64,000 nt of DNA from the NCBI GenBank assembly GCA_028714455.1, contig JAQTMG010000002.1, positions 38,047 to 102,046 of the forward strand, read 5' to 3'. This stretch comes from Patescibacteria group bacterium (GTDB taxonomy: Bacteria > Patescibacteriota > Patescibacteriia > CAIXNZ01). The position numbers were made by a program, and so were the translations under genes. This document shows positions 59,681-64,000 of the stretch, piece by piece (the first letter of the stretch is position 1; the number at the start of each line of letters is the position of its first letter). The notes under the pieces are model-generated. The model was not told the DNA's origin and searched no databases. It worked only from the letters and a program-made list of their open reading frames with translations.

Positions 59681-60247
59681 ATGGGGGATGAGTATTTTAA
59701 AAATAAATATCGTGTGCCATCAACACGTTTGGGTCATTGGAATTACGCGGATGGGGGATTTTATTATGTCACCATTTGCACAAAGGATAGGAAATGTTGT
59801 TTAGGCGAAATAAGAGGTAATAATGTTTATTTATCAAAAATTGGAGAGATTGTTTTGGATGAATGGTTGAAAACACAAAAATTAAGGCCAAATGTGGTTT
59901 TGGATGATTTTATTATCATGCCAAACCATATTCACGGAATTATTGTAATTAAAAATAACCAAACCGCCGTAGAGACGCATTGCAATGCGTCTCTACAACG
60001 AACGGAACAGAGACAAAACGCATTTGGCCCGCAAAGAAATAATTTGTCGTCAATTACTCGCGGCTTTAAAGGTTCTGTGGTGAGAAATTGTCGCGAGAAT
60101 AATTTTGATTTTGAATGGCAACCGCGATATTACGAACACATTATCAAAAACGACGAGGATTACGCTCGGATAAAAGGATATATTGCCAATAATCCGGTGA
60201 ATTGGGAATTTGATCGTGATAATCCCAAAACCTTTAAAATATCTTGA
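59681..60247 (+). mobile_element. REP-associated tyrosine transposase (RAYT, IS200/IS605 TnpA-like) with a family-B REP palindrome embedded in-frame
   Basis: HUH motif PNHIHGIIV, catalytic Tyr region RYYEHIIKN; GTAGAGACGCATTGCAATGCGTCTCTAC at 59968-59995 encodes ...AVETHCNASLQRT... Confidence 0.8.
59968..59995. repeat. REP family B palindrome, copy 3 (inside the RAYT ORF)
   Basis: Perfect 28-bp palindrome with the same GTAGAGACGC arms as 12806-12833 and 32105-32179. Confidence 0.85.
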
Positions 60248-60267: not shown

Positions 60268-61707
60268 ATGGAACTCAATAAAATCAAAAAAGTCCACATC
60301 ATCGGCATAGGCGGCATTGGTATTTCAGCTGTGGCCAAATTGCTTTTAAGTTTGGGTAAAAAAGTCAGCGGTTCTGATTTGGTTTCTTCTGACATTACTA
60401 GCACCCTAAAGAATTTTGGCGCTAATATCGTTATTGGGCCGCATAAAGCCATAAATGTGCCCAAAGATGTTGATTTGGTGTTATTTAGTGATGCTGTTCC
60501 ACTAGAAAACCCGGAACGAGCTCGGGGCTCGGGGCTCAAAGCTCAAAGCCTAAGTTATTTTCAATTTTTAGGCGAATTTAGTAAAGATAAATACACCATT
60601 GCCATTTCCGGTTGTCACGGCAAAACCACAACCACAGCTTTAGTTGGTTTGCTTTTGGAAGCAGGCGGTTTGGATCCGACCGTGATTGTGGGCAGTAAAG
60701 TGAAAAATTGGGATGGCAATTTGCGCCTTGGCGCCAGTAAATATTTTGTGGTTGAGGCCGATGAATACAAGGCCCATATGCTGCAACTAAATCCCAAAGC
60801 GATTATTTTAAACAACATTGAATTTGACCATCCGGATTTTTATAAGGACTTAAATCAATATATTGACGCTTTTAACCATTTCGTTTATAAACTGCCCGAG
60901 GATGGAATTTTTATTTACAACGCTGATGACCATAATATCGTTGACCAGATTGAAAAACCCGCCTGCGAGGTCCTGACTTTTGGTCTAGAAAATCCCTCGG
61001 TTGATTTAACCGTGAAAAGTATTAAGGTGGACCATGGCCGCCAGATTTTTAAACCGCTCTATAAAAATCAGGAACTGCGTGATTATAATTTGCAAGTGCC
61101 TGGCCGATTCAATATTTTGAACGCGCTTGGCGCAACCCTGTTAGCCCTGGAACTTGGCGTTAATCCTGACGTGATTAAAGATACCTTATCCAGATACACT
61201 GGCGCCTGGCGCAGATTTGAAGTAGTTGGCACAATTGATAATCTGACTGATGATAAAAACGGCGCCATTGTTATTTCTGATTATGCTCATCACCCGACTG
61301 AAATTGCCAAGACCATCAAAGCCACCAAAGAATTTTATCCAGACAGAAGACTGCTGGTTGCTTTCCAACCCCACCAGATTCAGCGAACAAAAGCTTTGTT
61401 CAATGAGTTTATTAAAACCTTTGCCCAAAGTCCGGCTGACATTGTTATTCTTTCGGAGATCTATGATGTGAGGGGTAGGGAAGAAAAAGATGTGACCAAA
61501 AGAGTCAGTTCGCAAGATCTTTTGGAAAAAATCGTTTTGGCTGAATCAAAAAAGCTCGTTGAAGGCGTCAAGGTTTCAGAATACTATTATGCCGCTGATT
61601 TAGTTGAAACCAAGGCCAAGATTTTGGAACTCGTGCAATCCAATGATGTGGTTTTGGTTTTGGGCGCTGGTGACATTGATAAAGTTGCCAGGGAACTTAT
61701 AAAATAA
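60268..61707 (+). CDS. murC: UDP-N-acetylmuramate--L-alanine ligase
   Basis: VHIIGIGGIGISAVA, AISGCHGKTTTT; in-frame heptamer repeat at 60517-60550. Confidence 0.9.
   Translation: MELNKIKKVHIIGIGGIGISAVAKLLLSLGKKVSGSDLVSSDITSTLKNFGANIVIGPHKAINVPKDVDLVLFSDAVPLENPERARGSGLKAQSLSYFQFLGEFSKDKYTIAISGCHGKTTTTALVGLLLEAGGLDPTVIVGSKVKNWDGNLRLGASKYFVVEADEYKAHMLQLNPKAIILNNIEFDHPDFYKDLNQYIDAFNHFVYKLPEDGIFIYNADDHNIVDQIEKPACEVLTFGLENPSVDLTVKSIKVDHGRQIFKPLYKNQELRDYNLQVPGRFNILNALGATLLALELGVNPDVIKDTLSRYTGAWRRFEVVGTIDNLTDDKNGAIVISDYAHHPTEIAKTIKATKEFYPDRRLLVAFQPHQIQRTKALFNEFIKTFAQSPADIVILSEIYDVRGREEKDVTKRVSSQDLLEKIVLAESKKLVEGVKVSEYYYAADLVETKAKILELVQSNDVVLVLGAGDIDKVARELIK
60517..60550. repeat. heptamer GGGCTCN tandem repeat inside the murC coding sequence
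   Basis: GAGCTCG GGGCTCG GGGCTCA AAGCTCA AAGCCTA; encodes ...RARGSGLKAQSLS... Confidence 0.65.
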
Positions 61708-61713
61708 TTATTT

Positions 61714-62196
61714 ATGAAGGAAAAATTTGGACAAGAACCAAGATTTGTCAAAGATAAAGATAATCTTTTAATGCTACAAGAAGCTTTGAGATCTAAGAAT
61801 ATCGATAAAGATATTAAGCCCATTCTTGAGAAATTTTTTACTTTACCAATAACACCTCACCAAAGCTGCTATGGACATCCGGAAAAAGATAAAAGCCCAT
61901 ATTTAAGTTATGTCGAAGATGAAGCGCGAAATGAAAAAGATAAGCGTTTTCAGCAATTGCTTAAAGAAAAAATTTTAGAATTAACCAAGATAATCAATGG
62001 CAAAATCGGCGGAGAGGTTGTAAATATAGCCTTGGAAGAAGTTGATCATGGTGGTAGGGGCCCCAAAGATTATACGCTAAAGTTTGACGTCATTGATAAA
62101 AAGTTTTTTAAAGAAAACGGCAAGGAAATCCTGGACATTATTTGGCAAGAATTTTCAAAATATCTTGATAAAGCAGCGAGAGAATTAATTAAATAA
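61714..62196 (+). CDS. hypothetical protein (160 aa)
   Basis: Intact ORF; no motif. Confidence 0.4.
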   Translation: MKEKFGQEPRFVKDKDNLLMLQEALRSKNIDKDIKPILEKFFTLPITPHQSCYGHPEKDKSPYLSYVEDEARNEKDKRFQQLLKEKILELTKIINGKIGGEVVNIALEEVDHGGRGPKDYTLKFDVIDKKFFKENGKEILDIIWQEFSKYLDKAARELIK

Positions 62197-62219: not shown

Positions 62220-62717
62220 ATGAAAACCAAATTACTTTTAGTCGCATTTGCCTGCGTGATTTTGGCTGGTTGCTCACTGATTCAGCCGGTCAATGTCAAT
62301 GTTAATGTGCCAGCCACTAACAATGTTGTCACCATTCCCAGTAACACTGTGCTGGATTTGAGCAATCAGGGTTTCACCAAAGTTCCGGATTATGTTTTTA
62401 ACATGACAAATTTGCAAGAGCTGAATATTTCCAATAATCAGATTACGGGTGCCATTCAATCTCAAATTGGACAACTTAAAAAACTTAAAATTCTTAATGC
62501 CAGCAACAATTTAATGACTGGCGTGCCAGCCGAAGTTGGCCAGCTCACAAATCTACAAATCCTAGATTTATCCAACAACCAGTTAACCGGTTTGCCCAAT
62601 GAACTTGGCAATTTGAAGAATTTGAAAACATTTAATATTTCAGGCAATAATTATTCTACTCAAGATCTGAATGGGATTATCCAGAAACTGCCAGCTAGCG
62701 TGAACATAATTAAATAA
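62220..62717 (+). CDS. leucine-rich-repeat lipoprotein
   Basis: Lipobox ILAGCS; LxxLxLSNNQLTG repeats. Confidence 0.6.
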   Translation: MKTKLLLVAFACVILAGCSLIQPVNVNVNVPATNNVVTIPSNTVLDLSNQGFTKVPDYVFNMTNLQELNISNNQITGAIQSQIGQLKKLKILNASNNLMTGVPAEVGQLTNLQILDLSNNQLTGLPNELGNLKNLKTFNISGNNYSTQDLNGIIQKLPASVNIIK

Positions 62718-62824
62718 AGTTTAATAATAAATAATCAAATTCCAGCCTTCGTTGGCTTGTGATTTGGTCATTATCGTTGAGTAAGTTAATTTTATTTTTT
62801 ATATAAATAACTAACAATCTTTTT

Positions 62825-63301
62825 ATGTCAGAGGATAGAAAAATGTTTAAGGCGGTTTGCACAGAATGCGGGCAAGCGTGCGAGGTGCCGTTTGAACCAA
62901 CAGGTGAAAAGCCGGTTTATTGCGCGGCTTGTTTTGCGAAAAGGCGAGGACAGCAACAAGGCCAGTCACAAGGCGGTCGCAAAATGTATTCTGCTGTTTG
63001 CGCTAAATGCGGCAAGCCCTGCCAGGTTTCATTTCAACCCACCCAAGGCAAACCAGTTTACTGCAGTCAGTGCTTTGGCCGAGGCAATGAAAGAGGCGGC
63101 GCAGGCAATCGTCCTGATCAATTGCAAATGATAAATTCCAAACTTGATAAAATCATCAATGCTTTGATTGTAGCCAAGATTATTAAGCCAGCTAAAGAAG
63201 TTAAGCCAGAAGTTAAGAAAGTGGAAGTGAAGAAATCAGCCAAAAAAGCGGCTAAGCCAGCGGCTAAAAAAATAGCTGCGAAAAAGAAAGGGAAGAAATA
63301 G
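62825..63301 (+). CDS. tandem CxxC-x17-CxxC zinc-ribbon protein with a Lys/Ala-rich basic tail
   Basis: CTECGQAC..PVYCAACF and CAKCGKPC..PVYCSQCF, then KKSAKKAAKPAAKKIAAKKKGKK. Confidence 0.5.
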   Translation: MSEDRKMFKAVCTECGQACEVPFEPTGEKPVYCAACFAKRRGQQQGQSQGGRKMYSAVCAKCGKPCQVSFQPTQGKPVYCSQCFGRGNERGGAGNRPDQLQMINSKLDKIINALIVAKIIKPAKEVKPEVKKVEVKKSAKKAAKPAAKKIAAKKKGKK

Positions 63302-63313
63302 GTTATTGTTAAT

Positions 63314-64000
63314 ATGAAAATAGGTAGATGTTTGAATACAACCAAAGAGGAAATAGAAGCTAAAAAATTCAATATATTTATTGGCATTTCGCTTGGTAAT
63401 AAATATTTTACTAGGGAGAATATAAAAGGATATATTGACTGGGCCTTGGCAAATACCAAAGAAAAGGTTGCTATTTTAATTCCCGACAAAATTCACTCGG
63501 TAAATTATGAAGTTAAATCTGGCTACAAAAAAGAGCGAGCGGAAAAACTTGCCCATAAAGAAGGGGATAAGGTTTTGAAAATAGTTGAAAGTATTCTTGG
63601 TGAATTTGATAAAGCCCGACGCGGAATTGTAGACATCTTGACTTGGGACAAAATAGAGACGGAAGAGTATAAAAGGATGGTTAATGTTTTGCGCCAAGAA
63701 TTTTCAATCGATGATAAATTTAGAAGTTTGATTTTGGAAATTGTAAAAGAAAATGTTAAATCTGATAAATTAACTGAATCAGATTACGAAAAATTAGCAT
63801 CTTATCCACTTGAAGAACTGCCTATGCTCATAAGCGGGTTTGAATATAATGGCGTTAAATATGATTTGTTGCCATATCCCGGAATCTCAAAAATTGATTA
63901 TTTAGTACTTGATCTGCAAGAGGGCAAGAGCTTCCCAGATATTACCAGGAAATTAAATATTAAAAACAGGCTGGGACTTATTGAGGCATATGCAGAATAA
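63314..64000 (+). CDS. putative tRNA-dependent cyclodipeptide synthase (CDPS, AlbC-like)
   Basis: IFIGISLGNKYFT matches the CDPS catalytic-serine region (AlbC ALIGISAGNSYFS, Ser37); 228 aa is CDPS-sized; a LEELP region lies at the position of the AlbC catalytic Glu; intact ORF ending exactly at the window edge. Confidence 0.55.
   Translation: MKIGRCLNTTKEEIEAKKFNIFIGISLGNKYFTRENIKGYIDWALANTKEKVAILIPDKIHSVNYEVKSGYKKERAEKLAHKEGDKVLKIVESILGEFDKARRGIVDILTWDKIETEEYKRMVNVLRQEFSIDDKFRSLILEIVKENVKSDKLTESDYEKLASYPLEELPMLISGFEYNGVKYDLLPYPGISKIDYLVLDLQEGKSFPDITRKLNIKNRLGLIEAYAE

Follow-up and report, generated by a model that had tools for sequence, protein, structure and literature searches.

The cyclodipeptide synthase gene and its neighbours

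The locus lies at the 3' end of the window, the 64,000-nucleotide stretch of DNA that was analysed, and consists of a zinc-finger protein gene (62843..63301), a tRNA-dependent cyclodipeptide synthase (CDPS) gene (63314..64000) and the beginning of a SET-domain methyltransferase gene (63990..64000), all on the forward strand. The CDPS reading frame contains 228 codons and is complete, because its TAA stop is formed by the final three bases of the window. The GC content is 41% for the window and 34–39% near the CDPS locus.

A first-pass annotation, made from the letters alone, had proposed that 63314–64000 encodes a CDPS of the AlbC family, and had put forward a search against the Pfam CDPS profile and a structure prediction as checks; both bear the proposal out. 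The 228-residue protein matches PF16715 (CDPS) with an E-value of 4e-20 and 72.9 bits (gathering score 27) and the NCBIfam profile TIGR04539 with an E-value of 3e-26 and 92.3 bits (cut-off 45), so that it clears the curated threshold of each. The closest solved structures found by phmmer in the PDB are the seven entries of ParcuCDPS (E 2e-30 to 6e-29, over residues 8–213), followed by remoter matches to FoCDPS, the Porphyromonas CDPS, BtCDPS, AlbC, YvmC and Rv2275. AlphaFold2, run with 23 homologues, gave a model with a mean pLDDT of 95.3 and a pTM of 0.90, and this model adopts a Rossmann-like single-domain fold related to the catalytic domain of class Ic aaRSs. When it was compared with the PDB by Foldseek, each of the 50 best matches was a CDPS structure (TM 0.57–0.81), ParcuCDPS 7qb8/7qax coming first (TM 0.80–0.81), and none was an aaRS. 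The genome had been thought to be of probable CPR type, and the identical protein at NCBI (P0001), located on a 188.7-kb contig, is indeed named 'MAG: tRNA-dependent cyclodipeptide synthase [Patescibacteria group bacterium]'. Judged by its profile scores and model, the product of 63314–64000 is predicted to be a genuine tRNA-dependent CDPS, of a kind already known in CPR bacteria and DPANN archaea. The CDPS itself is an uncharacterised new example of an established family, already correctly auto-annotated by NCBI.

The protein encoded upstream had been described as a double-CxxC protein with a lysine-rich tail, and this description holds. Two exact CxxC-x17-CxxC units are found (residues 12–36 and 59–83 of the 158-residue reading), and the final 49 residues contain 18 Lys and 10 Ala with no Arg. 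The protein carries two copies of PF23477 (zf_Tbcl_2, a probable treble-clef zinc finger; 115.6 bits, cut-off 27) and matches TIGR04272 (110.2 bits, cut-off 36), which places it in the CxxC-x17-CxxC family. Translation is more likely to begin at the ATG at 62843 than at that at 62825, giving 152 rather than 158 residues, because the former is preceded by GAGGA and the gene call in the Logan contig L001 is also of 152 residues. A gap of 12 nt separates this gene from the CDPS gene on the same strand, and the two are probably co-transcribed. A weak terminator-like hairpin (62742..62755, forward strand; L001 424–437), which follows the LRR lipoprotein gene and was detected by a consensus scan alone, may mark the upstream boundary of a transcription unit comprising the zinc-finger, CDPS and SET genes; the same scan gave no terminator-like site between the first two of these.

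Tailoring genes, if any, had been expected to lie beyond the window. The contig L001 is identical to the window across all 1682 shared bases and then extends past 64000, where the next gene is that of the SET-domain methyltransferase. Its ATG lies at 63990 in a different frame from the CDPS gene, so that its first 11 nt (ATG CAG AAT AA; 63990..64000) overlap the CDPS 3' end, with GAGG 4 nt upstream. The gene runs on for about 445 nt past the window to give a product of 150 residues, which matches PF00856 (SET) with 42 bits (cut-off 22.4) and is named by NCBI (P0121) 'SET domain-containing protein-lysine N-methyltransferase'. From this arrangement, the SET gene is predicted to be translationally coupled to the CDPS gene. 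Past 64000 the order in L001 is the SET gene, an unrelated 105-residue ORF, murB and gatC; with murC at 60268–61707, the CDPS cassette is thus located between murC and murB. The 105-residue ORF (L001 2209–2526) was considered as a further member of the cassette and rejected, having neither a Pfam match nor a homologue in the other CDPS loci. A tRNA scan of the window detected no tRNA gene, and an Rfam scan of the window detected an L10 leader alone, far from the CDPS locus.

Catalytic residues and substrate pocket

Alignment of the family profile with AlbC, the reference sequence of which was verified against PDB 3OQV, equates S26 with S37, N29 with N40, Y164 with Y178, E168 with E182, Y188 with Y202 and P189 with H203 (hhalign, probability 96.3%). 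All four catalytic positions of AlbC (Ser37, Tyr178, Glu182 and Tyr202) are therefore matched, by S26, Y164, E168 and Y188, and these are invariant in the family alignment. The GIS block and the LEELP motif (residues 166–170 of the ORF), picked out in the first-pass annotation as the sites of the catalytic serine and glutamate, contain S26 and E168 respectively. Ser26 (63389–63391), the predicted acyl-enzyme nucleophile, lies within the FIGISLGNKYFT block (residues 22–33; 63377..63412), and the predicted catalytic Tyr and Glu lie at either end of Y164-P-L-E-E168 (63803..63817), all on the forward strand. Asp58 (63485..63487, forward strand) carries the same number as D58 of ParcuCDPS in the phmmer alignment. 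In that enzyme D58 hydrogen bonds to the catalytic Ser and is essential (PMC7613923); in sequence it is conserved here and invariant in the family alignments, as befits the ParcuCDPS-related clade. Across the 64 aligned loci S26, N29, D58, Y164, E168, Y188 and P189 are kept with two exceptions: L052, in which S26 is replaced by Cys (Ser in 63 of 64), and L013, whose C-terminally truncated CDPS–SET product is without Y188 and P189.

The XYP subfamily is defined by X40, Y202 and P203, against N40, Y202 and H203 in the NYH subfamily (AlbC numbering; PMC7613923). The present enzyme has N29, Y188 and P189 at these positions; position 40 is free in XYP enzymes and is Asn here as in ParcuCDPS. Because of the Y-P pair (63875..63880, forward strand) the enzyme is assigned to the XYP type.

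The first substrate pocket, P1, differs from that of the closest characterised relative. ParcuCDPS binds His in P1 via Y55, E174 and Y189 (PMC7613923); the equivalent residues here are L55, M171 and L186, and the His-binding triad is accordingly absent. The AlbC-numbered P1 positions are occupied in the hhalign alignment by F22, G24, W111, M171, L172 and L186, to be read with the caution of the predictive scheme's own authors that in XYP enzymes the pocket positions may lie elsewhere and that P1/P2 assignments are uncertain (PMC5816076). The Y-E-Y triad is kept in about 20 other loci of the clade, and the present enzyme falls in a sister group with a hydrophobic P1. With the double mutations Y55V+E174L and E174L+Y189L, the products of ParcuCDPS became cLeu-Pro and cPhe-Pro (PMC7613923). 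As L, M and L stand in place of the His-binding Y, E and Y, the first substrate is most likely to be hydrophobic (Leu, Phe or Met) and not His, and the enzyme should not be classed as a cHis-X synthase; the prediction extends to the first substrate only.

If the enzyme follows the mechanism of AlbC and ParcuCDPS (PMC5816076; PMC7613923), a first aminoacyl-tRNA would hand its aminoacyl group to pocket P1, from which the group would move onto Ser26, polarised by Asp58. A second aminoacyl-tRNA would then place its aminoacyl group in pocket P2, and the resulting dipeptidyl-enzyme would cyclise with the aid of Tyr164, Glu168 and Tyr188 to release a 2,5-diketopiperazine.

Distribution of the clade and its linkage to SET genes

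The suggestion that a CDPS would be unusual in a CPR genome is contradicted by both the literature and the genomes surveyed. ParcuCDPS itself comes from a Parcubacterium; it was characterised in 2018 as CDPS 90 (cHP 44%, cHE 56%; PMC5816076) and crystallised in 2022 (PMC7613923). When GTDB, represented by a single genome for each species, was scanned with a sequence pattern, relatives of the present CDPS turned up in 70 species, 58 of which are labelled as CPR or DPANN-type archaea. The labels, taken from record titles, comprise 42 CPR/Patescibacteria, 16 DPANN-type archaea (Woese-, Nano- and Pacearchaeota, Forterrea, or unclassified 'archaeon') and 9 others, with 3 species unlabelled. When 1.84 billion cluster representatives were searched with a profile, 150 clusters passed an E-value threshold of 1e-30, 432 one of 1e-10 and 1155 one of 1e-3. 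The metagenome loci described below come from the scan with an alignment, a scan with the single protein having given none. The clade is found mainly in CPR bacteria and DPANN archaea, where it is common, not rare. The literature search for CDPSs together with CPR or DPANN found no relevant paper joining both, and cyclodipeptides are absent from a paper on CPR/DPANN quorum sensing.

The commonest conserved neighbour of the clade is a SET gene, directly downstream of or fused to the CDPS in approximately 13–18% of loci and in about half of the close relatives. In the genome loci it follows the CDPS directly in L005, L007, L010, L049 and L050, is found on one side or the other, at a distance of 100–350 nt, in L012 and L035, and shares one ORF with the CDPS in L013. 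Of the 65 metagenome loci that extend far enough past the CDPS, 12 have the SET gene immediately downstream or fused, as do 7 of the 14 that are at least 50% identical to the present CDPS. Searching from the SET side, the genes for two homologues (P0133, 66% identical, and P0178, 48%) begin 2–3 nt after a CDPS gene; that for P0185 (43%) does not follow one. Three proteins (P0077, P0081 and P0428) are full-length CDPS–SET fusions, and in three others of the CDPS clade (P0423, P0430 and P0452) a class I SAM methyltransferase is fused at the same C-terminal position. The locus is read here as a CDPS plus methyltransferase cassette. The CDPS is nevertheless independent of its SET partner, which is missing from approximately 82–87% of loci. 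Among the aligned loci no link was found between the SET partner and one CDPS pocket signature: the P1 motifs of SET-linked CDPSs are hydrophobic, intermediate or of His type, and their P2 signatures also differ. The divergence of the two proteins is weakly correlated (r 0.23, p about 0.14; mirror-tree/Mantel, 12 pairs), and at least two SET subtypes occur beside CDPSs. Of the other domains seen around the clade, a phosphoribosyltransferase forms the N-terminus of one CDPS fusion, and GNAT acetyltransferases lie beside the CDPS in five or six loci.

The SET protein itself has the expected features of its fold. H67-S68-C69, D96-Y97 and C115/C117/C122 (CxCx4C) are invariant in 27 SET homologues, and the model (pLDDT 85.9) matches the SET domains of MLL, ASH1L, NSD and BurB in Foldseek. 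Profile score, NHxC and (E)LxxDY motifs, post-SET Cys cluster and fold all identify it as a SET domain, and on the strength of motifs and model it looks catalytically competent. The closest sequence matches are MLL/SET1 lysine methyltransferases (E 1.5e-8), over the C-terminal half only. Over residues 20–137 the protein also matches BurB, a SET-domain S-methyltransferase of free methionine (PMC12542666), with an E-value of 1.2e-5; among the PDB hits the query TM-score is highest for BurB (0.71).

Since this one position carries fusions to two unrelated methyltransferase folds, the most economical interpretation is that the methyltransferase acts in the CDPS pathway. Whether the SET protein would methylate the cyclodipeptide made by the CDPS is evenly balanced in our judgement. 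Held somewhat more tentatively is the fuller proposal, in which the SET protein would be a small-molecule methyltransferase that tailors the diketopiperazine, and the cassette a minimal two-gene natural-product pathway shared laterally among CPR bacteria and DPANN archaea. We know of no SET enzyme that acts on a diketopiperazine. Were the proposal true, the SET protein would represent a new class of CDPS tailoring enzyme and, as far as we are aware, the only SET-fold enzyme apart from BurB with a metabolite, not a protein, as its demonstrated substrate; the cassette might then serve the episymbiotic lifestyle of its hosts. Among the papers open to search none ties SET domains to CDPS pathways. 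The adjacency and fusion of CDPS and SET genes, unmentioned in that literature, is the part worth following up. The linkage offers a testable hypothesis of new tailoring chemistry, and the cassette bears on the use of a tRNA-hijacking enzyme by ultra-reduced CPR/DPANN symbionts.

The serious rival to this reading is a protein-lysine target. The cyclodipeptide would then be left unmodified and the SET protein would be an ordinary protein-lysine methyltransferase, acting on a basic nucleoid or host protein, on the CDPS itself or on the Lys-rich tail of the zinc-finger protein, and the linkage would reflect joint regulation or a common part in interaction with the host, not chemistry on the diketopiperazine. 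Such a target is taken seriously because of the varied P1/P2 signatures, the weak co-divergence and the presence of at least two SET subtypes; the linkage is independent of pocket type, and with P1 and P2 so variable among SET-linked CDPSs, methylation of one particular side chain is hard to reconcile. The NCBI label also agrees with it, as do the top sequence and Foldseek matches to the H3K4 methyltransferases MLL1, MLL3 and SET1, with which the SET protein shares the motifs NHSCEP, DY and, post-SET, CxCx4C, and a protein with 18 Lys in its final 49 residues is encoded two genes upstream of SET. That protein is, however, missing from all 150 other loci, every other SET-linked locus included, whereas the existence of full-length CDPS–SET fusions, and of class I methyltransferases joined at that same position, favours a role in the CDPS pathway, and BurB shows that SET enzymes can accept small molecules. 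On balance a protein-lysine target is considered rather unlikely.

Two further explanations concern the CDPS and its upstream neighbour. The protein might have a CDPS fold and yet make no cyclodipeptide, being a degenerate class-I aaRS-like protein or an aminoacyl-transferase with another acceptor. Its sub-clade is without any assayed member, its P1 is unlike that of every characterised relative, and the CPR/DPANN host genomes are ultra-reduced and almost devoid of secondary metabolism. Since all the residues for the ping-pong and cyclisation chemistry of CDPSs are conserved, the nearest characterised relative is an active CDPS and the 50 best structural matches are CDPSs to the exclusion of aaRSs, this is regarded as very improbable. 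The chance is slimmer still that the CDPS works together with the zinc-finger protein, for example with the latter as a nucleic-acid binder that recruits or presents tRNA. The 12-nt gap, shared strand and uninterrupted stretch between the genes would suit such a pair, and their pairing had been noted in the first-pass annotation, but it is not conserved. No zinc-finger homologue was found near a CDPS at any of the 70 other GTDB loci (jackhmmer, all ORFs within 6 kb) or of 80 metagenome loci (phmmer, within 3 kb), the sole matching CDPS locus being the query's own. L002, the closest genomic CDPS relative (71% identity), is without one, and the zinc-finger family is widespread across Patescibacteria on contigs unrelated to those bearing CDPSs. 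A conserved zinc-finger/CDPS module was therefore rejected: as some 150 other CDPS loci are without the zinc-finger gene, the pairing is confined to this locus, and the zinc-finger protein is an incidental neighbour. Taken together, the evidence makes it probable that the locus encodes an active XYP-type CDPS with a hydrophobic P1, belonging to a CPR/DPANN clade and accompanied by a coupled SET methyltransferase and an incidental zinc-finger neighbour.

Comparison with characterised systems

AlbC from Streptomyces noursei, a cyclo(Phe-Leu) synthase (PDB 3OQV/4Q24), is the reference CDPS. It shares with the present enzyme the Rossmann-like fold, the equivalents of S37, Y178, E182, Y202 and N40, and a hydrophobic P1, in which L33, G35, L185, F186 and L200 of AlbC correspond to F22, G24, M171, L172 and L186. 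Direct similarity between the two sequences is marginal (phmmer E 0.013; hhalign probability 96%), and AlbC is an NYH enzyme (H203), whereas the present one is XYP (Pro189). The AlbC gene lies in an actinobacterial cluster with a cyclodipeptide oxidase and no SET gene. The architecture of the fused members of the clade is similar to that of the NYH CDPSs joined to tailoring domains (methyltransferase, P450) noted by Gondry et al. 2018 (PMC5816076). In both cases a SAM-dependent modifying domain follows the CDPS or is fused to its C-terminus, and class I methyltransferases also occur in the present clade, but the partner at this locus has a SET fold.

The SET protein is best compared with BurB from Burkholderia thailandensis (PDB 9L4T/9L4V), a SET-domain methionine S-methyltransferase. 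Both are small stand-alone SET proteins of 150–170 residues, and the substrate of BurB is a small molecule. They differ in that identity is 21–23%, BurB belongs to DMSP and malleicyprol-type pathways and not to CDPS loci, and the CxCx4C post-SET zinc motif, which is typical of lysine methyltransferases of the MLL type, is retained in the present SET protein.

[quoted passage not shown] The two enzymes share a CPR origin and nearly the same length (230 and 228 residues), with numbering in register to about residue 88, and both are XYP enzymes with S26, D58, Y-x3-E and Y-P in common; ParcuCDPS is the best match in both sequence and fold. Identity is nonetheless approximately 30%, and Y55, E174 and Y189 of the ParcuCDPS P1 pocket give way to L55, M171 and L186, as in the engineered variants switched to Leu or Phe. 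Because of this resemblance to the engineered variants a product other than that of ParcuCDPS is expected. The present enzyme is in effect the natural counterpart of those pocket variants, with L/M/L for Y/E/Y, so that the rules of P1 specificity in XYP enzymes can be tested on a pocket that exists already.

Gene surroundings between murC and murB

The block formed by the zinc-finger, cyclodipeptide synthase (CDPS) and SET-domain methyltransferase genes lies between murC (window 60268-61707) and murB (2596-3513 of L001, the contig that continues beyond the window). The same interval also holds a 160-aa ORF (window 61714-62196, + strand), a leucine-rich-repeat (LRR) lipoprotein gene and a 105-aa ORF (L001 2209-2526, + strand), and together with these genes the block appears to have been inserted among cell-wall genes. 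Neither the 160-aa nor the 105-aa ORF gave a Pfam match, and a homologue of the latter is absent from all other CDPS loci. The 165-aa LRR protein, encoded immediately upstream of the zinc-finger gene (window 62220-62717, + strand), matches LRR_4 (84.8 bits) and LRR_8 (60.7 bits) and has a lipoprotein-like N-terminus (LAGCS); it is possibly a surface or host-interaction protein. Just upstream of murC, a 188-aa ORF (window 59681-60247, + strand) resembles the IS200-like Y1 transposase family (PF01797), though at 20.9 bits it stays below the cut-off of 23. The sole Rfam match within the 64-kb window is the ribosomal protein L10 leader (RF00557; 22811-22939, + strand; 52.3 bits versus a gathering score of 44), and a search for tRNA genes over the same stretch gave none.

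Fused and multidomain forms of the synthase

A short CDPS-SET 'fusion' of 289-297 aa is encoded at L013 2007-2900 and is likewise seen in P0089, L104 and L108. At the junction the CDPS passes at approximately residue 175 into the SET protein at approximately residue 40. Missing from the joined form are the first strands of the SET part and, on the CDPS side, catalytic Y188-P189; the product is probably inactive. Several independent assemblies contain this form, so it appears to have arisen by a genuine in-frame deletion and not through faulty assembly.

Further multidomain proteins of the CDPS clade are P0423, P0430, P0452, P0453, P0441 and P0446. Three of these six carry a class I SAM methyltransferase at the C-terminus and one a phosphoribosyltransferase domain at the N-terminus. 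The other two are long proteins of 624 and 716 aa, whose large flanking regions gave no Pfam match.

Neighbouring genes and distribution of the clade

Among immediate neighbours of the clade, GNAT acetyltransferase genes rank second in frequency (L011 6783-7238; L018, L019, L028 and L046; weak GNAT-like genes in L003, L020 and L021), which hints at acylation as another possible tailoring step. Genes related to tRNA or nucleotides and S51 dipeptidase-E-like peptidases also repeatedly adjoin the CDPS (L008 6671-7645; L041 6100-7197; L015, L023, L027, L060, L002, L026 and L039). The tRNA- or nucleotide-related neighbours include 2-thiouracil desulfurase and Ham1 NTP pyrophosphatase; a further candidate is, from the look of its sequence, presumably an MnmA-like tRNA 2-thiouridylase. 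Such recurrence may be due to chance, the genomes being small. In L074 a phage-type integrase gene lies directly upstream of the CDPS.

The clade is common to CPR bacteria and DPANN-type archaeal MAGs (L010, L012, L014, L016, L025, L028, L031, L032, L036 and L074), and some loci from these groups also have the SET partner. This shared occurrence implies lateral transfer between CPR and DPANN, both of which are ultra-small symbionts.
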